From: Mustelus asterias
Lineage: Eukaryota
Reading direction: 5' to 3'
Length of the DNA: 64,000 nt
Assembly: GCF_964213995.1 (NCBI RefSeq)
Contig: NC_135808.1
Coordinates: 34,596,001-34,660,000, forward strand
Numbering within the stretch: position 1 is the stretch's first letter; every line of letters starts with the position of its first letter. The position numbers and the translations under genes were made by a program. Positions 31,196-64,000 of this stretch are shown here, piece after piece. The notes beneath the pieces were generated by a model. It was not told the origin of the DNA. It searched no databases and worked only from the letters and a program-made list of their open reading frames with translations.

Positions 31196-31820
31196 AACAG
31201 TGGCATTGCTGCAACGGCCTCAGTACTCAACGCCGACAACTGCCAGTTTCCAGATGCAATTTTACAACTCATCCGCTTCATCCTGGACCACAATGTGTTC
31301 ACCTTCAACAACCAGTTCTTCATCCAGACACACAGAACAGCCATGGGGACCAAATTCGCACCTCAATATGCCAACATCTTCATGCAACTTGGCCAATGTT
31401 GTCTACCTGATACGCTGCAGGAAAGGATGTCCCAAGGCATGGTACATTGGGGAGACCATGCAGACGCTACAACAACGGATGAATGAACACCGCTTGACAA
31501 TCACCAGGCACGAGTGTTCTCTTCCTGTTGGGGAGCACTTCAGTGGTCACGGGCATTCGGCCTCTGATCTTCGGGTAAGCGTTCTCCAAGGCGGCCTTCA
31601 CGACACACGACAGCGCAGAGTCGCTGAGCAGAGACTGATAGCCAAGTTCCGCACACATGAGGACGGCCTCAACCGGGATCTTGGGTTCATGTCACACTAT
31701 CTGTAACCCCCACAACGCGCCTGGGCTTGCAAAATCTCACAAACTGTCCTGTCTGGAGACAATACACATCTCTTTAACCTGTGCTTAACCCTCTCTCCAC
31801 TCACATTGTCTGTACCTTTA

Positions 31821-35905: not shown

Positions 35906-38900
35906 TGATGCGCGTTATCACACACGAGGCTAGATGCTCAGGAAAAAAAGGGTTTTATTTGCTGTAACGAAGCAGCCAACAATTATATACACGATCCCAG
36001 ACTGAGGGGCTCCAGCCAGAGCAGGGACCTTTATACCTCTCCCAGGAGGCGGAGCCCGACTGGGATGTACCACAACACTACAGTACAAAGGTGTAACAAC
36101 CCCACCCTAACCCCAACAGCAACAAGTAGAACAACCCATCCCTAACCCAACAGCAACATATGTACATACTTGTAGTACTGGCCAGACCCTGGCTCAGTAC
36201 TATCTAGTGGGAACCATCGATGGTTCACCACATTCACCCCTCCTTTGAAAACAAAGGCCGGCGGGGTACAAAAAGAGAATAATTTGTCATCAGTCTATAA
36301 GTTCAGACGGTCAGGGGGACCGCACTGTCGTTGTGACCTCCTCAATACCGGTGGTGACACCGGAGTAGGCACTTGCGGTGGCGTTCTCCCCAAGGCGATG
36401 TCCAGCTGTTCCTCCACAGACTCACGGGCCGGTTGACCCTGAGGTGACGGTAATCCATGGAGTCCCGACACGCCCTGAAGTGGCGACCATCCTCTGGACT
36501 CAGGCAAGCTGTGCACGGGAGTAAAAGGGTTAAGCAATGGTCCCGATGCTGCCCGCGCCGTGTCCGGGGGGGAAACAAGAGTTATGGGGTTTGTAACAGG
36601 GGGTATGGGAGCGACAGGGGTTGCTACGTCCCCTGCTGGCGCCAGGTCTCGGATCAAGACCGTGTCCTCTCGCCCGTCAGGGTATGCCACATAGGCATAC
36701 TGCGGGTTGGCGTAGAGGAGATGGACCTGTTCGACCAACGGGTCGGACTTGCGGGCCCTTACATGTCGCTGCAGGAGGACAGGTCCTGAGTACGTCAACC
36801 AAGACGGTAAAGAGGTCCCCGAGGAAGACTTCCGAGGGAAGGAAAACATGCTCTCATGGGGAGTAGCATTGGTTGCCGTACACAGGAGTGAGCGAATAGA
36901 ATGGAGCGCATCAGGGAGCACCTCTTGCCAACGGGAGACTGGAAGGCTTTTTGACTTCAACGCCAGTAAGACAGCCTTCCAGACTGTAGCATTCTCACGT
37001 TCCACCTGTCCGTTACCCCTAGGGTTGTAGCTCGTGGTCCTACTAGAGGCAATCCCGTATGAGAGCAGGTATTGCCTCAAGTCATCGCTCATGAACGACG
37101 AGCCCCTGTCGCTGTGAATGTAGCCGGGGTACCCGAACAGGGTAAAACGATCGCGGAATGCCTTGACTAAATGTGCCCGGTCAGGTCGGTAAAAGTGCAG
37201 TTTGCATTCCGCGTATACCCGACAGCTTCTTGTTACTGACCTGACGTCCTCCTCCGAGTAGGGCAGATTGCGGGCTTTTATAAAGTGGTAGAGCCGAATG
37301 ACCCCAGGATGGCATAGGTCATTATGGAGAGCCTGCAAACGGTCCTCCTGTATACTGGCGCATGTTCCACACGAGAGGGCATCCGAGGGCTCATTGAGTT
37401 TCCCTGGACGATACATGATGTCATAGTTATAGGTGGAGAGTTCAATTCTCCACCGCAAGATCTTGTCATTCTTGATCTTGCCCCTCTGCGTGTTATTAAA
37501 CATGAACGCCACGGACCGCTGGTCCGTGATCAGGGTGAACCGTTTTCCCGCCAAGTAATGGCGCCAGTGCCTGACGGCCTCCACAATGGCCTGGGCCTCC
37601 TTTTCCACCGCTGAATGCCGGATTTCCGGGCCTTGGAGGGTGCGGGAAAAAAATGCGACGCGCCTGCCCGCCTGGTTAAGTGTGGCGGCCAGGGCGAAAT
37701 CAGATGCATCGCTCTCCACCTGAAAGGGGATGGACCCGTCTACCGCGTGCATCGTAGCTTTCACGATGTCGGCTTTTAATTTATCAAAGGCCAATCAGGC
37801 CTCTGGCGTTAGGGGAAAAGTAGTGGACTTAATGAGCGGACGGGCTTTGTCCGCGTAATTGGGAACCCACTGCGCATAATAAGAGAAGAAGCCTAAGCAT
37901 CTTCTCAGTGCTTTTGCACTAGTGGGCAAGGGAAGTTCGGAAAGGGGGCGCATACGGTCTGGATCAGGGCCAATGACCCCATTTTCCACCACGTATCCTA
38001 GGATGGCTAAATGGCGCGTACGAAATACACACTTCTCCCTGTTGTAGGTCAGGTTCAGGCGAGATGCAGTGCATAGGAAATTCAGGAGATTTGTGTCGTG
38101 GTCCTGCTGGTCATGGCCGCAGATGGTGACATTATCCAGGTATGGGAAGGTAGCCCGCAGCCCGTTCTGGTCCACCATTCGGTCCATAGCACGCTGGAAG
38201 ACCGAGACCCCATTGGTGACACCAAAGGGAACCCTTAGAAAGTGATACAAGCGACTATCTGCCTCAAAAGCCGTGTATTGTCGGTCCTCTGGGCGAATGG
38301 GGAGTTGGTGGTAGGCAGACTTGAGGTCTATGGTGGAGAACACCCGGTACTGCGCAATCTGATTGACCATGTCAGATATGCGCGGGAGTGGATACGCATC
38401 CAGCTGCGTGTATCGATTAATGGTCTGACTATAGTCAATGACCATCCGGGGTTTGTTCCCGCTCTTGACCACCACGACCTGCACTCTCCACGGACTAGCG
38501 CTGGGTTGTATGATCCTTTCTTTGAGGAGCCACTGAACCTCAGATCGAATGAAGATCCGATCCTCAGCGCTGTAACGCCTACTCTTAGTCGCAATGGGCT
38601 TGCAGCCTGGCACAAGATTCTGGAACAGGGAGGGTGTGGTGATCTTCAGCGTCGAGAGGCTACAGGCGTTGGGCAATTTGGAGGCTGCTGTTCTCCCACC
38701 GAAAGTGAAGGGAGTGGCCCACCGTACTGTAGGGTTACACTCCTCAAGTGGACCATGAAGTTAAGTACGAGAAGTATTGGCGCGCAAAGGTGTGGCAACA
38801 CTAGGAGCTTGAAACGCTCGTACACTGTGCCTTGCACCGTTAAAGTTACCACGCAACTCCCTAGCACGGTGACAGACCGGGACCTCGATGCCATAGAAAT

Positions 38901-40485
38901 TGTCTGTTTGACAGGTTGAATCCGGAGTCCACACCGCTTCACAGTGTCTGGGTGGATAAAGCTCTCAGTGCTCCCGCTATCAAACAGACAATAAATTAAG
39001 TGGTCATTTACCTGGATGTTCATCATAGATTTGTCAAGTCTATGAGGCTTGGCTTGGTCCAGGATGATCAACGCCACCGTTGGTTCATGAGCGCCACTGC
39101 AGGCAGCTGAAATTGACAAGGATGACCCCTGCTGGTCGTTCGCGGTTGGTGCCGACCAACATGGCCGCTCCCATAGGTCGCACGTGGGTGATGGCGCCAA
39201 ACTCCGTGACCCCTGGTGGTCACACATCTCCGACTCCGTCGTAATGGCGTCGTCCTGGCCTCGCACGTGGACGAAACCCTCGATGATTTCAACGATGAAG
39301 ACCCGGGCTCTGAGGAATCACAGGCCGCACTGCTGTTCCTAGGTTTAGATCGGCACAATTTTGAATAGTGCCCCTTCTTACCGCAGGCTGAGCACAACAC
39401 AGCTTTAGCGGGACACCGTTGCCGAGTATGCTTCGCTCCCCCACAGAAGTAACACTGCGGGCCGCCCGGAGCTGCTGCCGTCGTCTGGCCCGAGTGTGAG
39501 CACGCCATTACGCAGCATTTCGAACCCGAGGGACGAGGAAGGATTGGCGACTGCTCCTGCCACGTGGTCTTCCGGATACAATACGCGGTTTTTGGAGGCC
39601 GTCTCCAGCATCTCCGCTCGCTCGATTGCCTGGGTAAGGTCAAGGATACCTTTCTCTAGTAGTTTAAGTCGAATGTACGACGAACCGAATCCCGCCACAA
39701 ATGCATCTCGGGCGAGGTCATTCATACTCTGCTCAGCCGACACAGCTTTGCAGTTACAACCCCTGGCTAGCTGTAGGAGCTCATTCGCGTATTCCTCCAT
39801 CGTTTCGCCAGACTGCTGTCGTCGAGTGGCTAAGAGGTAACGAGCGTGTATTTCGTTGGGCGGTATAATATAACGCTTCTTCAGAAGCTCGAGGGCCTTT
39901 GTGTAATCGGTGGCTGCACGGATCGCGAGGTAGACAGTGTCGCTTACCCTCGTATGGAGGACCCGGAGTCTGTCATCATCTGTGGTGACCGCTGCGGAGG
40001 CTGCCAGGTAGTCTTCGAAACACTTCAGCCAGTGGTCGAAGGTGTTAGATGCGCCCACCGCACGTGGATCTAGTGTAAGGCGTTCCGGCTTCAGTATCTG
40101 CTCCATACTCTCTTTTTTTTTCTTCGACGAGAGTTTCTTTACAGTAAATAAAATTGATGCGCGTTATCACACACGAGGCTTGAGATGCTCAGGAAATGAA
40201 GGCTTTTATTTACTGTAGCAAAGCAGCTAACAATTATATACACGATCCCAGACTGAAGGGGTCCCAGCCAGAGCAGGGACCTTTATACCTCTCCCAGGAG
40301 GCGGGGCCCGACTGGGATGTACCACAATAACTATAATACAAAGGTGTAACAACCCCACCCTAACCCCAACAGCAACAAGTAACACAACCCATCCCCAACC
40401 CAACAGCAACATATGTACATACTAGTAGTACTGGCCAGACCCTGGCTCAGTACTATCCAGTGGGAACCAACGATGGTTCACCACA
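35906..40485 (-). mobile_element. Gypsy LTR retrotransposon A (Mag-like architecture), full length, defective
   Basis: TG...CA LTRs at 40155-40485 and 35906-36232; PPT 36233-36246; TSD gaaga/gaagg; gag-PR-RT-RH-IN order. Confidence 0.96.
36295..40106 (-). pseudogene. gag-pol: gag-pol of Gypsy A (frameshifts, stop, 153-bp integrase deletion)
   Basis: Two CCHC knuckles, FDSGS protease, YLDN RT, DASD RNase H, HSDRG and QVER integrase motifs. Confidence 0.93.
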
Positions 40486-40851
40486 GAAGGTCTCCTCGCT
40501 GCTGTGCCAGGTTGTGCAGGGCACAGCACATCACCACAATGTGGGAAGAGATCAGGGGACTGTGCTGTCGGGCTCCGCCAGAGCAGTCCAGGCACCAGGG
40601 TCGCATTTTGAGGAGCCCTTTGCACCTTTCCACTATCGCGTGGGTGGCTACATGGGCCTCATTATAGCGGGTCTCCCCTCAGTCACAGTCCTCTGCATAC
40701 GCATCATCAGACAAGTCCGCAGCGGGTAACCAAATGTCCCCCACGAGCCACCCCTGCAGCCTGGGCTCCTCCTCAAAGACCACCAGGATATCCGAGCTCC
40801 TCAATATAAAGCTGTCATGCACGCTGCTGGGGTGTCTGACGCAGACTCCTC

Positions 40852-41056
40852 CCACCCTGAACATGCAGATTGTCTGCGACCATCAAATGAACATCATGTA
40901 GGTCGATGCACGACACCCAGGGAGTGTCCATGACAGCTTTGTGATCCGGCAGTCGGATATCCCTGGGCTCTTTGAAGACCAGCCCAGGCTCCCGGGCTGG
41001 CTACTGGGTGACAAGGGTTACCCGCTAAGGTCATGGCTGATGATGCCTGTGCAGAG
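40852..41056 (+). pseudogene. Harbinger 3 transposase fragment
   Basis: LNMQIVCDHQ...HPGSVHDSFVIRQS...WLLGDKGYPLRSWLMMP. Confidence 0.88.
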
Positions 41057-41253
41057 TGTGGTGAACCATCGTTGGTTCCCACTAGATAGTACTGAGCCAG
41101 GGTCTGGCCAGTACTACAAGTATGTACATATGTTGCTGTTGGGTTAGGGATGGGTTGTTCTACTTTTTGCTGTTGGGGTTAGGGTGGGGTTGTTACACCT
41201 TTGTACTGTAGTGTTGTGGTACATCCCAGTCGGGCTCCGCCTCCTGGGAGAGG

Positions 41254-41335
41254 TATAAAGGTCCCTGCTCTGGCTGGGACCCCTCAGTCTGGGATCATGT
41301 ATATAATTAGTAGCTGCCTTGTTACAGCAAATAAA
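41254..41335 (+). promoter_or_regulatory. LTR promoter and poly(A) signal: TATAAA 41254-41259, Inr-like TCAGT 41284-41288, AATAAA 41330-41335
   Basis: TATA-to-Inr spacing is about 30 nt; the same layout is present in the 5' LTRs of A and C. Confidence 0.65.
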
Positions 41336-42943
41336 AGCCTTTATTTCCTGAGCATCAAGCCTCGTGTATGATAACGCGCATCAATTTTATTTGCTGTAAA
41401 TAAACTCACATCGAAGAAGAAAAGAAAAGAGAGTATGGAGCAGATACTGAAGCCTGAACGCCTTACACTAGATCCATGTGCGGTGGGCGCCTCTAACACC
41501 TTCGACCAGTGGCTGAAGTGTTTTGAGGACTACCTGGCAGCCTCTGCAGCGGTCACCACAGATGATGACAGACTCCGGGTCCTCCATACGAGGGTAAGCG
41601 ACACTGTCTACCTCGCGATCCGTGCGGCCACCGATTACACAAAGGCCCTCGAGCTTCTGAAGAAGCGTTATATCAAACCGCCCAATGAAATACACGCTCG
41701 TTACCTCTTAGCCACTCGACGACGGCAGTCCGGCGAAACGATGGAGGAATACGCGAACGAGCTCCTACAGCTAGCCAGGGGCTGTAACTGCAAAGCTGTG
41801 TCGGCTGAGCAGAGTATGAACGACCTCGCCCGAGATGCGTTTGTGGCGGGAGTCGGATCGTCGTACATTCGACTCAAACTACTGAAGAAAGGTAACCTTG
41901 ACCTTACCCAGGCAATAGAACTAGCGGAGATGCTGGAGACGGCCTCCAAAAGCCTAGTATTGTATCCTGAAGACCACGTGGAGGCAACGTGGCAGGAGCA
42001 GTCGCCAATCCCTCCTCGTCCCTCGGGTTCGAGATGCTGCGTAATGGCGTGCTCACACTCGGGCCAGACAATGGCAGCAGCTCCGGGCGGCCTGCGGTGT
42101 TACTTCTGTGGGGGAGCGAAGCATACTCGGCAACGGTGTCTCGCTAAAACTGTGTTGTGCTCCGCCTGCGGTAAGAAGGGGCACTATTTGAAAGTGTGCC
42201 GATCTAAATCTGCTTCTAGGAACAGCAGTGCGGCCTGCGATTCCTCAGAGCCCGGTTCTTCGTCGTCGAAATCGTCAAGGCTTTCGTCCACGTGCAAGGC
42301 CTGGACGACGCCATTACGGTCGACGGAGTCGGAGATGTGTGACCACCAGGGGTCACGAAGTTTGGCGCCATCACCCACGTGCGACCTATGGGAGCGGCCA
42401 TGTTGGTTGGCACCGACCGCGAACGACCAGCAGGGGTCATCCTTGTCAATTTCAGCTGCCTGCAGTGGCGCTCATGAACCAACGGTGGCGTCGATCATCC
42501 TGGACCAGGCCAAGCCTCATAGACTTGACAAGTCTATGATGGACATTCAGGCAAATGACCACTTGATTTATTGTCTGTTTGACAGCGGGAGCACTGAGAG
42601 CTTTATCCACCCAGACACTGTGAAGCGGTGTGGACTCCAGATTCAACCTGTCAAACAGACAATTTCTATGGCATCAAGGTCCCGGTCTGTCACCGTGCTA
42701 GGGAGTTGCGTGGTAACTTTAACGGTGCAAGGCACAGTTTACGAGCGTTTCAAGCTCCTAGTGTTGCCGCACCTTTGCGCGCCAATACTTCTCGGACTTA
42801 ACTTCATGGTCCACTTGAGGAGTGTAACCCTACAGTACGGTGGGCCACTCCCTTCGCTCTCAGTGGGAGAACAGCAGCCTCCAAATTGCCCAACGCCCCG
42901 CCTGTAGCCTCTCGACGCTGAAGATCACCACACCCTCCCTGTT

Positions 42944-43648
42944 GACGTGCCGGATCATCGACACAGATGCCATCATCTCACGTGAGAACACCATCCACCA
43001 GGTACATGGTACATACTCTTGCAACTCGGCCAACGTTGTCTACCTGATACGCTGCAAGAAAGGATGTCCCGAGGCATGGTACATTGGGGAAACTATGCAG
43101 ACGCTGCGACAACGGATGAATGAACACCGCTCGACAATCACCAGGCAAGACTGTTCTCTTCCTGTTGGGGAGCACTTCAGCGGTCACGGGCATTCGGCCT
43201 CTGATATTCGGGTAAGCGTTCTCCAAGGCGGCCTTCGCGACACACGACAGCGCAGAGTCGCTGAGCAGAAACTGATAGCCAAGTTCCGCACACTCGAGGA
43301 CGGCCTCAACCGGGATATTGGGTTCATGTCACACTATTTGTAACTCCCACAGTTGCGTGGACCTGCAGAGTTTCACTGGCTGTCTTGTCTGGAGACAATA
43401 CACATCTTTTTAGCCTGTCTTGATGCTCTCTCCACTCCCATTGTTTTGTTTCTTAAAGACTTGATTAGTTGTAAGTATTCGCATTCCAACCATTATTCAT
43501 GTAAATTGAGTCTGTGTCTTTATAAGCTCTGTTTGTGAACAGAATTCCCACTCACCTGAAGAAGGGGCTTAGAGCTTCGAAAGCTTGTGTGGCTTTTGCT
43601 ACCAAATAAACTTGTTGGACTTTAACCTGGTGTTGTTAAACTTCTTAC
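42944..43648 (+). mobile_element. Penelope-like 3' fragment (GIY-YIG plus pseudo-LTR) inserted in Gypsy B, no TSD
   Basis: VVYLIRCKKGCPEAWYIGET; removing it restores ccctgtt|ccagaatc. Confidence 0.93.
43553..43589 (+). ncRNA. Minimal hammerhead ribozyme
   Basis: CAC-CTGAAGA-A-GGGGC..GCTTC-GAAA-GCTT-GTG. Confidence 0.8.
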
Positions 43649-46329
43649 CCAGAATCTTGTGCCAGGCTGCAAGCCCATCGCGACTAAGAGTAGGCGTTAC
43701 AGCGCTGAGGATCGGATCTTCATTCGATCTGAAGTTCAGTGGCTCCTCAAAGAAAGGATCATACAACCCAGCGCTAGTCCGTGGAGAGCGCAGGTCGTGG
43801 TGGTCAAGAGCGGGAACAAATCGCGGATGGTCATTGACTATAGTCAGACCATTAATCGATACACGCAGCTGGATGCGTATCCCCTCCCGCGCATATCTGA
43901 TATGGTCAATCAGATTTCGCAGTACCGGGTGTTCTCCACCATAGACCTCAAGTCTGCCTACCACCAACTCCCCATTCGCCCAGAGGACCGACAATACACG
44001 GCTTTTGAGGCGGATGGTCGCTTGTATCACTTTCTCAGGGTTCCTTTTGGTGTCACCAATGGGGTCTCGGTCTTCCAGCGTGCTATGGACCGAATGGTGG
44101 ACCAGAACGGGCTGCGGGCTACCTTCCCGTACCTGGATAATGTCACCATCTGCGGCCATGACCAACAGGACCACGACACAAATCTCCTGAATTTCCTATG
44201 CACTGCATCTCGCCTGAACCTGACCTACAACAGGGAGAAGTGTGTGTTTCGTACGCGCCATTTAGCCATCCTAGGATACGTGGTGGAAAACGGGGTCATT
44301 GGCCCTGATCCAGACCGTATGCGCCCCCTTTCTGAACTTCCCCTGCCCACTAGTGCAAAAGCACTGAGAAGATGCTTAGGCTTCTTCTCTTATTATGCGC
44401 AGTGGGTTCCCAATTACGCGGACAAAGCCCGTCCGCTCATTAAGTCCACTACTTTTCCCCTAACACCAGAGGCCCGATTGGCCTTTGATAAATTAAAAGC
44501 CGACATCGCGAAAGCTACGATGCACGCTGTTGATGAGTCCATCCCCTTTCAGGTGGTGAGCGATGCATCTGATTTCGCCCTGGCCGCCACACTTAACCAG
44601 GCGGGCAGGCCCGTCGCATTTTTTTCCCGCACCCTCCAAGGCCCCGAAATTCGGCATTCAGCGCTGGAAAAGGAGGCCCAGGCCATTGTGGAGGCCGTCA
44701 GGCACTGGCGCCATTACTTGGTGGGAAAACGGTTCACCCTGATCACGGACCAGCGGTCCGTGGCGTTCATGTTTAATAACACGCAGAGGGGCAAGATCAA
44801 GAATGACAAGATCTTGCGGTGGTGAATCGAACTCTCCATCTATAACTATGACATCATGTATCGTCCAGGGAAACTCAATGAGCCCTCGGATGCCCTGTCG
44901 CGTGGAACATGCGCCAGTATACAGGAGGACCGTTTGCAGGCTCTCCATAATGACCTATGCCATCCTGGGGTCACTCGGCTCTACCACTTTATAAAAGCCC
45001 GCAATCTGCCCTACTCGGTGGAGGACGTCAGGTCCATAACAAGAAGCTGTCGGGTTTGCGCGGAATGCAAACCGCACTTTTACCGACCTGACCGGGCACA
45101 TTTAGTCAAGGCCACTCGTCCCTTCGAGAGACTGAGTGTCGATTTTAAGGGCCCCCTTCCCTCAACAGATCGGAATGTGTACTTCCTCAACATCATTGAC
45201 GAGTACTCTAGATTCCCTTTTGTTGTTCCCTGCTCTGATACATCCGCTGCCACGGTTATCAAGGCATTCCGTGATCTCTTTACCCTGTTCGGGAACCCCG
45301 GCTACATTCACAGCGACAGGGGCTCGTCGTTCATGAGTGATGACTTGAGGCAATACCTGCTCTCATACAGGATTGCCTCTAGTAGAACCACGAGCTACAA
45401 CCCTAGGGGTAACGGACAGGTGGAACGTGAGAATGCTACAGTCTGGAAGGCTGTCTGACTGGCATTGAAGTCAAAAAGCCTTCCAGTCTCCCGTTGGCAA
45501 GAGGTGCTCCCTGATGCGCTCCACTCCATACGCTCACTCCTGTGTACGGCATCCAACGCTACTCCCCATGAGAGGATGTTTTCATTCCCTCGGAAGTCTT
45601 CCTCGGGGACCTCATTACCGTCTTGGTTGACGTACTCAGGACCTGTCCTCCTGCGGCGACATGTAAGGGCCCGCAAGTCCGACCCGTTGGTCGAACAGGT
45701 CCATCTCCTCCACGCCAACCCTCAGTATGCCTATGTGGCATACCCTGACGGGCGAGAGGACACGGTCTCGATCCGAGACCTGGCGCCAGCAGGGGACGTA
45801 GCAACCCCTGTCGCTCCCATACCCCCTGTTACAAACCCCATAACTCTTGTTTCCCCTCCGGACACGGCGCGGGCAGCATCGGGACCATTGCTTAACCCTT
45901 TTACTCCCGTGTACAGCTTGCCTGAGTCCAGAGGATGGTCGCCACTTCAGGGCGTGTCGGAACTCCATGGATTACCGTCACCTCAGGGTCAACCGGCCCG
46001 TGAGTCTGTGGAGGAACAGTTGGACATCGCCTTGGGGAGAACGCCACCGCAAGTGCCTACTCCGGTGTCATCGCCGGTATTGAGGAGGTCACAACGACGG
46101 TGCGGTCCCCCTGACCGTCTGAACTTATAGACTGATGTCAAATTATTCTGTTTTTGTACCCCGCCGGCCTTTGTTTTCAAAGGAGGGGTGAATGTGGTGA
46201 ACCATCGTTGGTTCCCACTAGATAGTACTGAGCCAGGGACTGGCCATTACTACAAGTATGTATATATGTTGCTGTTGGGTTAGGGATGGGTTGTTCTACT
46301 TGTTGCTGTTGGGGTTAGGGTTGGGCTGA

Positions 46330-51842: not shown

Positions 51843-54800
51843 TGTGGTGAACCATTGTTGGTTACCACCAGGAGTGCTGAGCCATGGTCTGGCCAGTACT
51901 ATGAGTCTGTAGATATGTTACTGTTGAGGTTAGGGTTGGGCTGTTCTACCTGTTGATATAGTCCTATGGTACTCCCCAGTTGGCTCCGCCTTCCGGGAGA
52001 GGTATAAAGGTCACTGCTCTGCCTGGTGACCCTTTAGTCTGGGATTGTATATTGTATATAGTAGCTCCGTTATTGTTGGCAATAAAAGCCTTTATTTCCC
52101 AGGTACATCCTGCCTCCTGTGTGATTTATCACGCATCAATTTTATTGCCAATAAGTAAATTTTATTTGAAAAAAACCCAAAAGAAAACCATGGAGCAAAT
52201 GCTGAAACCCGAACGGCTTACGTTGGATCCACGTGCGGCGGGAGCATCGAACACTTTCGACCACTGGTTGAAGTGTTTCCAAGATTACCTCGACGCCTCC
52301 ACAGCGGTCCACAACGACACCGACAGACTCCGGGTCCTCCACGCGAGGGTAAGCGACGCTGTATACCTAGCGATCCGTGAGGCCCAAGACTACAAAGGGG
52401 CCCTCGAGCTTCTCAAAAAGCGATACATCAAACCGCCGAATGAGATCCATGCTCGACACCTTCTAGCCACTCGACGGCGGCAGCCCGGCGAAACGACGGA
52501 ACAGTACCTGTGTGAACTTCAGCAGCTAGCCAGAGCCTGCAACTGCAAGCCAGTGTCGGCAGCCCAGTACATGAGCGACCTAGTTCGAGATGCGTTCGTG
52601 GCGGGAATCGGCTCATCGTACATCCGCCTTCGGCTGCTGGAGCAAGGTAACCTCGACCTCACTAAAACCGTAGAGTTAGCTGACGCTCTAGAAACGGCCT
52701 CCAAAAGTCTGGAGATGTCCCCCGACGACCACGTGGAGACAGTGTGGCAGGGGCAGCCGCAGACTCCACTTTATTCAGCGGGACCGAAAAACTGCGCGAT
52801 TGCGTTTCCAGCCTCGGACCTGACGACGGCAGCAGCTCCAGGTGGCCCGCGGTGTTACTTCTGTGGGGGGGGGTGAAACACCCTCGGCAGCGATGTCCAG
52901 CTAAAACGGTGTTGTGCTCCGCCTGTGGCAAGAAGGGACATTATTCCAAAGTATGCCAGACCAAACCACTCTCCAAACACAGCAGTGCGGCGTGTGACTC
53001 CCCGGAGCCGGCCTCCTTGTCTTCTGCATCTTCGAGGTCTTCCACCACGTGCGATTCCAGGACGTCGCCATTCCTAACGACAGAGTTGCAAAACACGTGC
53101 GACCTGCAGGGGCCGCCGGTTTTGGCGCCATCGACCACGTGCAACCTATGGGGGCAGCCATTTTGGTCGGCACCGACCGCAAATGACCAGCAGGGGCCGT
53201 CATCAACCATCTCAGCTGCCTGCAGTTGCACCCACGATCCAACGGTGGCGTCAATCATCCTGGACCAGGCCAAGCCTCACAGACTCGACAAGTCCATGAT
53301 GGACATACAGGTAAACGGACGCCAGATTTATTGTTTGTTTGACAGCGGGAGCACGGAGAGCTTCATTCACCCTGACACCGTGAAGCGGTGTGGTCTCCAG
53401 ATTCGGACTGTCAAGCAGACAATTTCGATGGCGTCAAGGTCCTGGTCTGTCACCGTGCTAGGGAGCTACGTGGTCAATCTGACGGTGCAGCGCACGGTTT
53501 ACGAGAACTTCAGGCTCCATGTGTTACCACACCTTTGCGCGCCGATACTCCTAGGACTAGGTTTTATGGTCCACCTGAAGAGTGTAACCCTGCAGTACGA
53601 TGGGCCACTCCCTCCGCTTTCAGTGGGAGATCTGCAGCCTCTAAATTGCCCAATGCGCTCCACATGTAGTCTCTCGACGCTCAGGATTACCACACCCTCC
53701 CTATTCCAGAATCTCGTGCCAGGCTGCAAGCCCATCGCAACAAAGAGCAGGCGTTACAGCACTGAGGATCAGATCTTCATTCGATCTGAAGTTCAGCGGC
53801 TCCTCAAGGAAGGGATCATCCAACCTAGCGCTAGTCCTTGGAGAGTGCAAGTCGTGGTGGTTAAGAATGGGAACAAACCCCGGATGGTCATAGACTATAG
53901 TCAGACCATTAACAGATACACGCAGCTGGATGCGTATCCCCTCCCGCACATATCTGACATTGTCAATCAGATTGCGCAGTACCGGGTGTTCTCCACCATT
54001 GACTTAAAATCTGCTTACCACCAGCTCCACATTCGCCCAGAGGACCGAAAATACACGGCCTTTGAGGCGGATGGTCGCCTGTACCACTTTTTAAGGGTTC
54101 CCTTTGGTGTCACGAATGGGGTCTCGGTCTTCCAGCGTGCTATGGACCGAATGGTGGACCAGAACAGGCTGCGGGCTACCTTCCTGTACCTGGATAACGT
54201 CACCATCTGCGGCCATGACCAGCAGGACCACGATGCCAACCTTCTTAGATTCTTACGCACTGCATCTCACCTGAATCTGACCTACAACAGGGAGAAGTGT
54301 GTATTTCGCACGCGCCGCCTAGCTATCCTCGGATACGTGGTGGAAAACGGGGTCCTTGGCCCTGATCCAAACCGTATGCGTCCCCTCCTCGAACTCCCCC
54401 TGCCCACTAGCATCAAAGCACTGAGAAGATGCTTAGGCTTCTTCTCATACTATGCACAGTGGGTTCCCAATTACGTGGACAAAGACCGTCCGCTCATCAA
54501 GTCTACCTCCTTTCCCCTAACAACAGAGGCTCGCTTAGCCTTTGCAGGAATAAAAGCCGACATTGCGTAAACCACGATGCACGCTATTGATGAGTCCATC
54601 CCCTTCCAGGTGGAGAGTGATGCATCTGATTTCGCCCTGGCCGCCACACTTAACCAGGCGGGCAGGCCCGTCGCCTTTTTCTCTCGCACCCTCCAAGGCC
54701 CTGAAATTCGGCATTCTGCGGTGGAAAAGGAGGCCCAGGCCATTGTGGAGGCCGTTCGGCATTGGCGCCATTACTTGGCGGGAAAACGGTTCACTCTGCT

Positions 54801-56547
54801 CACGGACCAGCGGTCCGTGGCGTTCATGTTCAACAACACGTTACGGGGTAAGATCAAGAATGATAAAATCTTGAGGTGGAGAATCGAACTCTCCACCTAC
54901 AATTATGATATCATGTACCGTCCAGGGAAGCTCAACGAGCCCTCGGACGCCCTGTCGCGTGGAATATGCGCTAGTATGCAGGAGAATCGATTACAGGCTC
55001 TCCACAATGACCTCTGCCATCCGGGGGTCACTCGGCTCTTCCACTTCATAAAGGCCCGGAATCTACCCTACTCGGTGGAGGATGTCAGGTCCATAACCAG
55101 AAGTTGCCAGGTATGCGCGGAATGCAAACCGCACTTCTACCGACCTGACAGGGCACACCTCATTAAGGCCACTCGTCCTTTCGAAAGACTGAGTGTGGAC
55201 TTCAAGGGCCCCCTTCCCTCGACAGATCGGAACGTGTACTTCCTCAATGTGATTGATGAGTACTCATGATTCCCTTTTGTCATTCCCTGTTCTGATATGA
55301 CCGCTGCCACGGTTACCAAGGCATTATGGGATCTTTTCACCCTGTTCGGTTACCCCTGTTATATCCACAGCGATAGGGGCTCGTCGTTCATGAGCGATGA
55401 CTTGAGGCAATACCTGCTCTCATATGGGATTGCCTCTAGTAGAACCACGAGCTACAACCCAAGGGGTAACGGACAGGTTGAACGAGAGAATGCTACAGTC
55501 TGGAAGGCTGTCTTACTGGCATTGAGGTCTAAAGGTCTTCCAGTCTCCCGTTGGCAAGAGGTACTCCCTGATGCGCTCCACTCCTTACGCTCACTCCTGT
55601 GTACGGCAACCAACGCTACTCCTCATGAGAGAATGTTTTCATTCCGTAGGAAGTCTTCCTCTGGGACCTCATTACCGTCTTGGTTGACATACTCAGGACC
55701 TGTCCTCCTGCGGCAGCATGTTAGGACCCGCAAGTCCGACCCTTTGGTTGAACAGGTCCATCTCCTCCACGCCAACCCTCAATATGCCTATGTGGCATAT
55801 CCTGACGGGCGAGAGGACACGGTCTCGATTCGAGATCTGGCGCCAGCAGGGGGCTTGGAAACCCCAGTCGCTCCCACACCCCCAGTTAGGGACCCCCCGA
55901 CCATTATCTCTCCTCCTGACACGGCGCGGGCAGTATCGGGACCGCCACTTAACCCTCTTACTCCCGTGTACAGCTTGCCTGAGTCCAGGAGATTGTCGCC
56001 ACCTCGAGGCGTGCTCGAGTCCAGTGGATTGTCACCACCTCGTGGTCTACTGGCCCGTGAGGAACTGGAGGAGTCACTGGACACCGCCTTGGAGAGAAGG
56101 TCACCGCGATTGCCTGAACCGGCGTCATCGCCGGTGTTGAGGAGGTCGCAGCGACGGTGCGGTCCCCCAAACCGTTTGAACTTATTGACAGATGAACAGT
56201 TGTTCTGTTTTTTTGTGCCCCGCCGGCCTTTGTTTTAAAAGGAGGGGTGAATGTGGTGAACCATTGTTGGTTACCACCAGGAGTGCTGAGCCATGGTCTG
56301 GCCAGTACTATGAGTCTGTAGATATGTTACTGTTGGGGTTAGGGTTGGGCTGTTCTACCTGTTAATATAGTCCTATGGTACACCCCAGTTGGCTCCGCCT
56401 CCTGGGAGAGGTATGAAGGTCACTGCTCTGCCTGGTGACCCTTTAGTCTGGGATTGTATATTGTATACAGTAGCTCCGTTATTGTTGGCAATAAAAGCCT
56501 TTATTTCCCGGGTACGTCCAGCCTCCCGTGTGATTTATCGCACATCA
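51843..56547 (+). mobile_element. Gypsy LTR retrotransposon C (sister subfamily), full length
   Basis: 296-bp LTRs at 51843-52138 and 56252-56547; perfect TSD tggag; PPT aaaaggaggggtgaa. Confidence 0.98.
52190..56238 (+). pseudogene. gag-pol: Single gag-pol ORF of Gypsy C (one frameshift in the G run near 52870, stops at 54570 and 55269)
   Basis: Knuckle-PR-RT is continuous in ORF 52744..54570; YLDN at 54187-54198. Confidence 0.95.
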
Positions 56548-57309: not shown

Positions 57310-58087
57310 CCTATCCCCACACCTCCACTACTTGTCTTCAAATGACCGCGCAATCTCAAACAGACCATTGTACGCAGCAAACTACCCAGCCTTCTGGAGA
57401 ACAGTGACCACGACACCACACAACCTTGCCTCTCGTTGTCTCTCGTTGTCTACCTGATACGCTACAGGAAAGGATGTCCCGAGGCATGGTACATTGGGGA
57501 GACCATGCAGACGCTACGACAACAGATGAATGAACACCGCTCGAAAATCAGCAGGCAGGAGTGTTCCCTTCCTGTCGGGGAACACTTCAGCAGTCACAGA
57601 CATTCAGCCTCTGATCTTCGGGTAAGCGTTCTCCAAGGTGGCCTTCAAGACACATGACAACGCAGAATCGCCGAGCAGAGACTGATAGCCAAGTTCACAC
57701 ACATGAGGACGGCCTCAACCAGGATCTTGGGTTCATGTCACACTATCTGTAACCCCCACAATTTGGCCTGGGCTTACAAAATCTTTCTAACTTTCCTGGC
57801 TTAAGACAATTCATACCTCTTTAACCTGTGCTTCACCCTCTCTCCACTCGCATTGTCTGTATCTGTAAAGACTTGGTTACCTGTAAAGACTCGCATTCCA
57901 GACATTATCTTGCAATTGAGTCTGTGTCTATATATGCTGTGTTTGTGAACCCAGCTCCCCACTCACCTGATGAAGGAGCAGCACTCCGAAAGCTCGTGCT
58001 ACCAAATAAACCTGTTGGACTTTAACCTGGTGTTGTGAGACTTCTTACTGTGCCCACCCCAGTCCAACGCCAGCATCTCCACATCAT
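57310..58087 (+). mobile_element. Penelope-like 3' fragment (GIY-YIG plus pseudo-LTR)
   Basis: PRNLKQTIVRSKL; VVYLIRYRKGCPEAWYIGET. Confidence 0.9.
57964..57998 (+). ncRNA. Minimal hammerhead ribozyme
   Basis: CAC-CTGATGA-A-GGAG..CTCC-GAAA-GCTC-GTG. Confidence 0.85.
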
Positions 58088-59790: not shown

Positions 59791-62488
59791 CACCCTCTAA
59801 GATCATCACAGGCAACAGAGTGTGACAGACGGCAGGCTGCCTTCACCTCTGCTGTGGATATTGAGGATGCACCAAGACAGAGCAGTGGGGTTAGAAAGGT
59901 TAAGAAGCTCTAGTTTCACAATGTGGGCACAGGTGTTTAGCACTTGTACATGACGGTCACCTCTGTAAATGAATTCTCACTATTGCAGCTTTTCTATGGC
60001 TCCTTGTTCTGATGTTCTGTATTCCTGTAGTCCCAACTGTAACACTGAACTCCTGCACCAGAAAAAGGCAGGGTGCTCAGTCCAGAGCTTCCTCCATGTG
60101 CTTTGTGCAAGGTTGCCCATATTGGTGATGCCCCTTCACAGTGACTAATGCATCAGCCTTAATCTCGAAGGTATGAGCATGTCTCCACAACTTACAAATA
60201 TAATGTCACTCATTCCAGTCATTGTCAATGTGAGATCTCTGCACCTTTTGAGCTGTGGCTGGTCCCCCCATCCGAACTGCCTTAGCGTCCGGTGACTCTG
60301 CATCTCAATGGTTCCGTTCAGGAAGGATGCCTTAAGATCAGGCGAATTGAAACTTCCCCGCTACGTCATTTGATATGACCCAAGTCACTGAGAGTAACTG
60401 ACCTGCCATGGGCCAGACATTATCAGAAACTCTTTGAGGATCTATGCTCTGTCTGCACTGCAAGTCATCATCCTCCTGCAACATAGGGACTATGGGCAAC
60501 TGCTCCCTCCCCACGACACAAGCCATATCAGTGAGAGTGAGTGCTGCTGGCAGTCAGACTGGACAGTAACCCACTGAAGCCCTGTGAAGATACTGGATGT
60601 CCTCCCCGGATATCCTCGTCACCATCCATAAACATAATGACAGTGATCAACTGAGTGGATGATCCATCTCAGCCTCCTCCAGTGGTCTCCAGCATCTCAG
60701 ATGCCAGTCTCCAGCCAATTCGATTCACTCCACGTGATATCAAGAAATGGTTGGAGGCACTGGATATTGCAAAGGCAATGGGCCCTGATAACATTCCGAC
60801 AATAGTATTGAAGACTTGTGCTCGAGATCTTGCCGCTCCCCTAGCTAAGCTCTTCCAATACAGTTACAACACTGGCATCTACTCAACAATGTGGAAAATT
60901 GCCCAGGTATGTCCTGTGCACACAAAGCAGGACAAATCCAATCCAGCCAATTAGAGCCCAATCAGTCTACTCTCGATCATCAGTAAAGTGATGAAGGGGT
61001 CATCAACAGTGTTATCAAGCAGCACCTGCTCAGCAATAACCTGCTCAGTGACACCCAGTTTGGGTTTCACCAGGGTCACTCAGCTCCTGACCTCATTACA
61101 GTCCTGGTTCAAACATGGACAAAAGAGCTGAATTCCAGAGGTGAGGTGAGAGTGACAGCCCTTGACATCAAGGTTGCATTCGACCGAGTGTGGCATCAAG
61201 GAGCCTGAGTGAAACTGGAATCAATGGGTATCAGGGGGCAAACACTCCATTGGTTGGAATCATACCTGGTACATAGGAAGATGGTTGTGGAGGGTCAGTC
61301 ATCTCAGCTCCAGGACATCTCTGCAGGAGTCCCTCAGGGTAGTGTCCTCGGCCCAACAATCTTCAGCTGCTTCATCAATGACCTTCCCTCCATCATAAGG
61401 TCAGAAGTGGGGATGTTTGCCGATGATTGCATAATGTTCAGCACCATTCGCGGCTCCTCAGATACTGAAGCAGTCCATGTTCAAATGCAACAAGATCTGG
61501 ACAATATCCAGGCTTGGGCTGACAAGTGGCAAATAACATTTGCGCCGCACAAATACCAGGCAATGATCATCACCAATAAGAGATACTCTAACCACCGCCC
61601 CTTAACATTCAATGGTGTAACCATCACTGAATCCCCCACTGTCAACATCCTTGGGGTTATCATTGACCAGAAACTCAACTGGACTCGCCACATAAACACA
61701 GCTACAACAGCAGGTCAGAGGCTAGGAATACTGTGGCGAGTAGCTCACCTCCTGACTCCCCAACGCCTATCCAGTATCTACAAGGCACAAGTCAGGAACG
61801 TGATGGAATACTCCCCACTTACCTGGATTGGTGCAGCTCCCACAACACTCAAGAAGCTTGACACTATCCAGGACAAAGCAGCCCACTTGATTGGCACCAC
61901 ATCTACAGACATTCAATCCCTTCACCACCTACGCTCAGTAGCAGCAGTGTGTACTATCTACAAGATGCGCTGCAGCAATTCACCAAAGATCCTTAGACAA
62001 CACTGTCCAAACCCATGACCACTTCCATCTAGAAGGACAAGGGCAGCAAATAAATGGGAACACCACCATCTGCAAGTTCCCCTCCAAGTCACTCACCATC
62101 CTGACTTGGAAATATATCGCCGTTCCTTCGCAGTCGCTGGGTCAAAATCCTGGAATTCCCTCCCGAACAGCATTGTGGGTCAACCCACAGAACATGGACT
62201 GCAGCCATTCAAGAAGGCAGCTCACCACCACCTTCTCAAGGGCAACTAGGGATGGGCAGTAAATGCTGGCCAGCCAGTGACACCCATGTCCCACGAAGAA
62301 GTAAAAAAAAACATCCCGAGTTCGTCTGTCTCGTCATTGCCTCATGGCTGACATCCTCTCCCTTCAGGACCTCTGCAGCTTCATTCCCTTTGACATCCTT
62401 CTCATCAAAAGAAATGTGTCACTCCCCCAACTCCTCCTCTGGCAGTTCCTCCCCCTATTGCAGTGCCAGGTTATTCAAGGTGCAGCAG
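59791..62488. mobile_element. Harbinger remnant: accessory-gene end (RKVKKL* at 59913, +) and transposase C-terminus (-), split by a LINE
   Basis: agaaaggttaagaagctctag; CCTLNNLALQ-like translation at 62460-62488. Confidence 0.55.
60655..62291 (+). mobile_element. LINE (CR1/L2 group), RT and 3' end
   Basis: [24 protein letters not shown]; short A tail. Confidence 0.9.
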
Positions 62489-64000
62489 ATAGAAACATAG
62501 AAACATAGAAAAAATACAGTTTAGAGGGATGTCTAAACAGGCCCTTCGGCCCACAAGTTGCGCCGGTCATGTCCCTATCTACCTAGGCTTATATATAGGC
62601 CTACCTATAACCCTCAATCCTATTAACTCCCATGTACTCATCCAGAAGTCTCTTAAAAGACCCGATCGAGTTTGCCTCCACCACCACTGACGGCAGCCGA
62701 TTCCACTCACCCACAACCCTCTGAGTGAAAAACTTACCCCTGACATCTCCTCTGTACCTACTCCCCAGCACCTTAAATCTGTGTCCTCTCGTAGCAACCA
62801 TTTCAGCCCTGGGAAAAAGCCTCCGAGAATCCACTCGATCTATACCTCTCAACATCTTGTACACCTCTATCAGGTCACCTCTCATCCTTCGTCTCTCCAA
62901 GGAGAAAAGACCGAGCTCCCTCAACCTATCCTCATAAGGCATGCTACCCAACCCAGGCAACATCCTTGTAAATCTTCTCTGCACCCTTTCAATAATTTCC
63001 ACATCCCTCCTGTAATGAGGCGACCAGAACTGAGCACAGTACTCTAAGTGGGGTCTGACGAGGGTCTTATATAGCTGCATCATTATCCCCGGACTCCTAA
63101 ACTTAATCCCTCGAATGATGAAAGCCAGCACACCATACGCCTTTTTAACCACCTCCTCTATCTGCAAGGCCGATTTAAGAGTCCTATGGACCCGGACCCC
63201 AAGGTCCTTCTGATCCTCCACACTGCTAAGAGTCTTACCCTTGATATTATACTCCTTCATCCCATTTGACCTGCCAAAATGGACTACTACACATTTATCC
63301 GGGTTGAAGTCCATCTGCCACTTCTCTGCCCAGTCTTGCATCCTATCTATGTCACACTGCAGCTTCTGACATCCCTCTAAACTATCCACAACACCACCAA
63401 CCTTCGTGTCGTCGGCAAACTTACCAACCCATCCCTCCAGTTCCTCATCCAGGTCATTTATAAAAATGACAAACAGCAAGGGTCCCAGAACAGATCCCTG
63501 GGGCACTCCACTGGTGACCGACCTCCATTCAGAAAAAGACCCATCTACAACCACTCTCTGCCTTCTGCAGGCAAGCCAGTTCTGGATCCGCAAGGCAACA
63601 GCCCCTTGGATCCCATGCCCTCTCACTTTCTCGAGAAGTCTTGCATGGGGGACCTTACCGAACACCTTGCTGAAGTCCATGTAAACCACATCTACTGCTT
63701 TTCCTTCGTCAATGTGTTTAGTCACATTATCAAAGAACTCCACCAGGCTCGTAAGGCACAATTTGCCTTTGACAAAGCCTTGCTGACTACTTTTGAGCAT
63801 ACTAAGCTTCTCTAAATGTTCATAAATCCTGTCCCTCAGGATCTTCTCCATCAACTTACCAACCACTGAGGTTAGACTCACCGGTCGATAATTTCCTAGG
63901 CTGTCCCTATTCCCTTTCTTGAATATAGGAACCACATCCGCAATCCTCCAATCCTCCAGAACCTCTCCCATCTCCATGGACGGCGCAAAGATCATCGCCA
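62489..64000 (-). mobile_element. CR1 ORF2 RT region, open to the window end
   Basis: ORF 62601..63995; (tagaaaca)n tail. Confidence 0.95.

Follow-up and report, generated by a model that had tools for sequence, protein, structure and literature searches.

The job of the second aspartate in the YxDD motif of reverse transcriptases (RTs) has been open since the Ty1 mutant D211N was found to polymerise without transposing. The locus analysed here, a 64,000-nt stretch of Mustelus asterias DNA (the window; contig NC_135808.1, positions 34,596,001 to 34,660,000), raises the question in natural form, since its three Gypsy elements all encode Asn at this position: can an RT with two catalytic aspartates be the working enzyme of a retrotransposon family? 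In Ty1, D211N keeps polymerase activity, with a 223-fold lower kpol, a preference for Mn and no transposition, whereas D211E abolishes activity; suppressors in RNase H bring back 5-10% of D211N transposition, and Ty3 RT is described as similarly flexible (PMC2148107). The sequence-only reading of the window, whose account of a Ty1 mutant that polymerises yet blocks transposition agrees with that source, had proposed a naturally active two-aspartate RT, possibly co-evolved with unusual priming.

The three copies, A, B and C, and the RT features on which the question turns are:

35906..40485, minus strand: copy A, full-length but broken (5' LTR 40155-40485, 3' LTR 35906-36232)
38131..38142, minus strand: RT motif C of copy A, YLDN, Asn codon AAT
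41057..46326, plus strand: copy B, broken (5' LTR 41057-41383, polypurine tract 46179-46192, 3' LTR from 46193)
42943..43649, plus strand: insertion in the protease/RT interval of copy B, a repeat fragment with a GIY-YIG domain (PF01541, E 7.7e-05)
43944..43946, plus strand: motif-A catalytic Asp of copy B (TIDLKSAY), from translation and alignment
44130..44141, plus strand: RT motif C of copy B, YLDN, Asn codon AAT, aligning with YLDD of Ty3
51843..56547, plus strand: copy C, full-length but broken (LTRs 51843-52138 and 56252-56547, polypurine tract 56238-56251)
54187..54198, plus strand: RT motif C of copy C, YLDN, Asn codon AAC within a CpG

The motif, its positions and its codons in all three copies are thus as first read, but the AAT/AAC difference, taken then as a sign that selection had kept Asn, is weak by itself and was dropped as proof: AAC is followed by GTC and so forms a CpG, C>T and G>A are both observed at the CpG spanning the Asn codon, and AAT can therefore come from neutral decay. 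The marks of transposition attributed to these copies hold fully for copy C, with LTRs identical at 283 of 296 positions and a perfect target-site duplication (TSD), TGGAG/TGGAG, and only in part for the others: the LTRs of copy A agree in 308 of 331 columns but its TSD, CCTTC/TCTTC, has one mismatch, and the 3' LTR of copy B stops after ~134 nt, leaving it without a 3' TSD. Similarly, the statement that catalytic residues are otherwise retained stands for the motif-A Asp, for RNase H (D-E-D-D, seen in the translations together with the protease DSGS motif) and for the integrase HHCC/D,D,E of copies B and C, but not for copy A, where a deletion takes out part of the integrase core. Stops, frameshifts or the insertion break all three copies.

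Some features of the surroundings may be recorded here. Copies A and B lie head to head with ~570 bp between them and form a long inverted repeat (35906-41383) in which the RTs are 97% alike. The GIY-YIG fragment in copy B is probably Penelope-like, and relatives of it lie near 31374-31673 and 57421-57720. Repeats fill the window nearly throughout, and many fragments with a FADD motif, on both strands at 1900-33000 and 61200-64000, are presumably CR1-like LINEs. No tRNA gene was found in the 64 kb.

By every feature tested, the window elements are Ty3/Gypsy (Metaviridae). The order of Pfam domains in copy C (gag-asp_proteas, RVT_1, RT_RNaseH, Integrase_H2C2, rve) is PR-RT-RH-IN, which they share with yeast Ty3 along with TG...CA LTRs, a 5-bp TSD and a polypurine tract, and the motif-C Asn falls opposite the second YLDD aspartate when aligned to Ty3 RT (PDB 4OL8, E 2.9e-50), compared to E values of 1e-20 or weaker for retroviral RTs among solved structures. 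No Pao-type Pfam family was present among the domain matches, all of them of Ty3/Gypsy type, and the elements are hence not BEL/Pao members. They differ from other Ty3/Gypsy elements in having YxDN, which occurs in ~60% of the sampled members of their clade and in essentially all copies in this genome, a single gag-pol frame, no tRNA-type primer-binding site (PBS), and clade-specific residues such as SPWRAQ.

We searched the genome (3.68 Gb) for motif patterns, whose counts leave out copies differing in flanking residues. An exact 23-mer pattern gave 7,794 matches with Asn, 15 with Asp and 21 with Ser at the third catalytic position, and a degenerate 26-mer gave 10,852 with Asn and 21 with Asp (0.19%). 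Since Asp is not above Ser, the Asp copies correspond to mutation background, at the level expected for any single transition. Consistent with this, the nearest relative of 15 of 18 Asp copies examined carried Asn, and the sole all-Asp clade among the 18 was one pair 99.8% identical. YLDN is therefore the normal state of the family, with Asn at the third position across the sampled subfamilies, in contrast to the three aspartates of the canonical RT active site. Neither the motif counts nor the relatedness of the 18 Asp copies revealed an Asp-bearing lineage that could act as helper, and the rarity of Asp copies and their scatter among Asn copies speak against one within the family; the intact YLDD relatives sharing the LTRs, which would have pointed to mobilisation in trans, were likewise not found in this genome.

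The family is, moreover, recently mobile. The 72 loci analysed for structure were picked partly for long frames, partly in genome order and, in six cases, for Asp; by hand count, 45 of these have an exact 5-bp TSD, and in 11, every one of them with Asn, LTR identity is 99% or more (100% in two). A single gag-pol frame of 1329-1355 codons with YLDN was present in 12 of 12 copies picked for long open frames. Pairwise dN/dS in RT-RNase H fell from 0.38 for near copies (dS below 0.05, 54 pairs) to 0.07 for pairs from different subfamilies (dS 0.7-1.5, 433 pairs), and was 0.084 for RT alone (Nei-Gojobori, 403 codons, 74 distinct stop-free collinear copies of 133 loci, eight of them Asp copies; pairs are non-independent and the stop-free filter favours young copies). 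This fall is the pattern expected from selected master lineages plus decaying inserted copies. RT and RNase H are hence under purifying selection, and the relaxed selection on YLDN RTs that had been named as a possible sign against their activity is not seen.

Could the family nonetheless be copied by another enzyme? If the Asn polymerase were dead or too slow, an Asp RT from a rare member or from another Gypsy family might copy its RNA in trans, its own Pol serving for protease, RNase H and integrase. The block on transposition in Ty1 D211N (PMC2148107), the 21 Asp copies and a survey that covered this one among the Gypsy families of the genome would all leave room for such a scheme. Against it, besides the number and scatter of the Asp copies, stand the dN/dS of the polymerase domain itself and the retention of the motif-A Asp, needless for a dead polymerase, in 116 of 117 aligned Asn rows, and we regard it as very improbable. 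Even harder to credit is A-to-I editing of the mRNA that recodes the Asn codon and yields an ordinary YLDD protein. The required change, AAY to GAY, is indeed an A-to-G in the first base of the codon, at a site that is Asx-only, but the same RNA serves as copying template, so that editing would seed Asp copies in the genome, where Asp stands at 0.19% and is not above Ser; nor was A>G listed at window position 54196 in contigs from two putative RNA runs and one more, a weak sign since contigs drop rare variants. Taken together, the copy counts, recent insertions, dN/dS and lack of an Asp helper lineage in the genome give good support at the sequence level to the natural two-aspartate RT proposed at the outset, and the Asn-bearing RT is very probably the working enzyme of the family.

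We next asked how far the trait extends. The nearest named relatives are in sharks and rays (73-82% identity), and a scan of viral contigs gave 226 pattern matches with no relative among them. For the query plus its 120 best homologues out of 1,189, motif C is YxDN in 94, YxDD in 26 and YLNK in one. Host names, available for a minority of these best 120, are five sharks and rays, a sea anemone and a tunicate for Asn, and a sea cucumber, Trichuris and Trichinella for Asp; all nine named shark and ray rows have Asn. Of the best 150 cluster representatives, 148 span the motif; 79 of these are at least 38% identical, 30 of them with Asn, and none of the 69 below 38% has it. Across 201 clade rows the third catalytic position is Asn in 124, Asp in 74 and something else in three, never Glu, and the first motif-C Asp is present in 200; Asn and Asp rows alike retain the motif-A Asp and all four acidic residues of RNase H. 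Asn/Asp pairs can be as close as 77-87% identity.

In a FastTree phylogeny inferred with the motif column removed, 189 clade rows (120 Asn, 69 Asp) were split from 16 outgroup rows by a branch with support 100, whereas 65 of 201 inner branches of the FastTree trees had support below 80. The Asp/Asn site required 19 changes on the 189-row tree, compared to 47-65 with shuffled labels. The deepest branches are mostly Asp, Asn arises at several places, and multi-member Asp groups lie inside Asn groups, which makes it likely that the site has changed in both directions. On this evidence the YLDN trait of the family belongs to one animal Ty3/Gypsy clade, with at least 19 switches. No compensating residue tracked the switch once relatedness was allowed for, in 7 of the 15 top columns and with 8 independent pairs usable; the candidates Pro before the motif, Thr at +5 and Asn at +155 were rejected, their association vanishing under independent-pair tests. 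Residues invariant in the clade and rare in other Gypsy RTs include SPWRAQ (fingers) and GKIKNDKI (RNase H), which are candidates for a background that tolerates Asn.

These data suggest how the enzyme might work. The RT would polymerise with only two catalytic aspartates, that of motif A and the first of motif C, binding the two metals, and the third position would be filled by Asn, which has the same shape and can form hydrogen bonds; what matters there would be the shape of the Asx side chain rather than its charge. That Ty1 D211N polymerises and D211E does not agrees with an Asx-only site, and as Ty1 D211N cannot transpose, the clade must have a permissive background. This background may have arisen once, early near the base of the clade, after which Asp and Asn would be near-interchangeable with no single compensating residue for each switch. 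The GDN motif of negative-strand RNA virus polymerases offers a possible analogy to YxDN.

The second part of the original proposal concerned priming, and rests on complementarity between the LTR and the PBS in the three window copies:

40139..40218, minus strand: copy A, LTR arm 40204-40218 and PBS 40139-40153
41254..41289, plus strand: copy B, TATA box and initiator-like TCAGT motif ~32 nt apart, with the predicted transcription start
41322..41336, plus strand: copy B, LTR arm with the AATAAA signal at its end, complementary to the PBS, the predicted self-primer
41385..41399, plus strand: copy B, PBS, one base past the LTR end and complementary to the element's own LTR arm
52073..52087, plus strand: copy C, LTR arm complementary to the PBS (fold z -5.75)
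52140..52154, plus strand: copy C, PBS

The LTR ends in CA and is followed by one spacer base and then by 13-15 bases complementary to an LTR arm that ends in AATAAAA; z scores for the LTR/PBS folds of the window copies are -1.8, -5.8 and -2.4. Scoring the stem in 64 of the 72 loci (49 distinct arm pairs) revealed that every one of positions 1-13 is Watson-Crick paired in 45-49 of the 49, and that most of positions 8-13 use three or four different pair types. An arm formed on average 5.55 of 6 pairs with its own partner, compared to 2.94 with shuffled partners (maximum 3.51 in 1,000 shuffles). In 57 of 64 copies a spacing of 31-33 nt separates the TATA box from the initiator-like TCAGT, which would place the arm at about +37 to +52 in the RNA, its end at +45 to +55 from the predicted start in 57 of the 64. 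This co-varying stem points to tRNA-free self-priming, in which the arm in the R region of the element's own RNA would pair with the PBS and, once cut after its AAUAAAA, prime minus-strand synthesis. GCC(T) follows the poly(A) signal of the arm here and in most of the distant relatives shown, a candidate for a conserved cut site.

The stem could instead serve a single, different purpose, pairing between LTR and PBS hiding the polyadenylation signal of the 5' LTR while something else primes. The arm does contain AATAAA, its partner lies only downstream of the 5' LTR, and its end falls within the transcript instead of at the RNA 5' end as in Tf1 and Tj1, all of which would suit masking. However, exactly one base separates the partner from the LTR CA, the register of a primer, in the 64 scored copies (where this was a selection criterion) and in many distant relatives, and its middle varies so freely that no tRNA can serve. 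Masking and priming are also not exclusive. We thus favour self-priming from the internal arm, see masking of the 5' poly(A) signal as the alternative or a second role, and consider a stem with the masking role alone to be quite unlikely.

Self-priming is known in Tf1/Sushi elements and predicted in Tcn1 and TAR (PMC6317226), and their PBS, like that of the shark family, where compensatory changes in 49 arm pairs attest to it, is complementary to the element's own 5' LTR and not to a tRNA. Tf1 and Tj1 use the mRNA's own 5' end as primer (PMC4600332), whereas the arm described here contains AATAAA and, judged from the predicted start, would be internal. In copy C the C-terminal part matched just rve and no chromodomain, and the shark family is accordingly not a Tf1/Sushi chromovirus, the position of the arm differing by inference. 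If confirmed, an internal self-primer would be a further independent case of priming without tRNA.

Is Asn then kept because of the priming? Asn might be adaptive, tuning the rate, metal use or pyrophosphate release of the RT to a self-primer or to a limit on copy rate, and co-evolve with the priming structure. This is compatible with an active Asn enzyme and differs only on the reason for which Asn is kept. Asn is fixed in the nine named shark and ray rows and in more than 10,000 copies here, with Asp one transition away, and is found only in a clade that also has the self-complementary PBS. We scored the stem in metagenome and genome loci, 40 of which had a gag start and 37 enough upstream DNA: stems of at least 11 pairs occurred in 26 of 37 (control windows within ORFs reached 11 at most), namely in 20 of 25 Asn loci, 2 of 7 Asp loci and 4 of 5 others. 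The predicted co-occurrence of YxDN with the self-complementary PBS thus holds in that most Asn relatives have the stem, but fails in that it is not exclusive to them: two YLDD relatives have a full 15-pair stem, and three of the five Asp loci that miss it are degraded, with the motif Tyr replaced by a stop. The stem is clade-wide, and with an Asp sample that is small and mostly degraded, a bias towards Asn is possible. Set beside the multi-member Asp lineages nested among Asn lineages, the close Asn/Asp pairs and the independent presence of YVDN in nematode BEL/Pao elements, these data leave co-evolution with priming unsupported, and an adaptive Asn seems to us unlikely. A site that tolerates either residue in a permissive background remains the reading we prefer.

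A natural two-aspartate RT is not in itself new, which tempers the surprise. Nematode belpaoviruses (Atlas virus, Tas) have YVDN as a distinguishing feature, seen in an element that is intact and whose LTRs are identical (bioRxiv 10.1101/2021.11.23.469668), the same natural Asp-to-Asn change at the same RT position. They belong to a different superfamily and carry env, and in the part of that report available YVDN is given as a family trait, without repeated Asp/Asn switching; the difference in superfamily implies that YVDN and the shark YLDN are of independent origin. Ty1 D211N is the same substitution in a laboratory mutant that does not transpose, whereas Asn here accompanies more than 10,000 genomic copies. 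For Ty3/Gypsy, literature searches outside subscription journals and Repbase turned up neither YxDN nor Asp/Asn switching nor the internal-arm primer geometry. What is added here is scale, with Asn fixed in those copies, a direct test for a helper lineage, and matched pairs of natural enzymes.

Combining both parts, we tentatively envisage, with somewhat less than even confidence in the whole, an old animal-wide clade in which Asp and Asn are freely exchangeable (at least 19 two-way switches), which powers a 10,000-copy expansion in a cartilaginous fish and primes itself from an internal arm containing the poly(A) signal, in a geometry unlike that of Tf1 and possibly silencing the 5' poly(A) site. 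As natural Asn and Asp enzymes 77-87% identical exist, the job of the residue (metal choice, pyrophosphate release or RNase H coupling) can be tested without design. Were YxDN taken in annotation as the mark of a dead RT, one of the large and recently mobile families of this genome would be misclassified.

The clade may correspond to Cigr-1 (RepeatMasker class LTR/Gypsy-Cigr), to which we liken it by description. Cigr-1 has a single frame of ~1,210 codons, in line with relatives of the window elements that measure 1,150-1,280 aa. A single long ORF, short LTRs and marine invertebrate and chordate hosts are consistent with this likeness, and the host range fits, but they are not diagnostic, and no named Ciona protein was among the 120 matches listed in a Styela-centred search. 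Cigr-1 elements are reported from Ciona, molluscs and annelids (PMC6238403, PMC8556966), and the available portions of that literature make no mention of YxDN or of the PBS. Elements of the clade also occur in bacterial MAG records (GTDB genome contigs), under the name of bacterial integrases; the most likely source is host DNA contaminating the bins.
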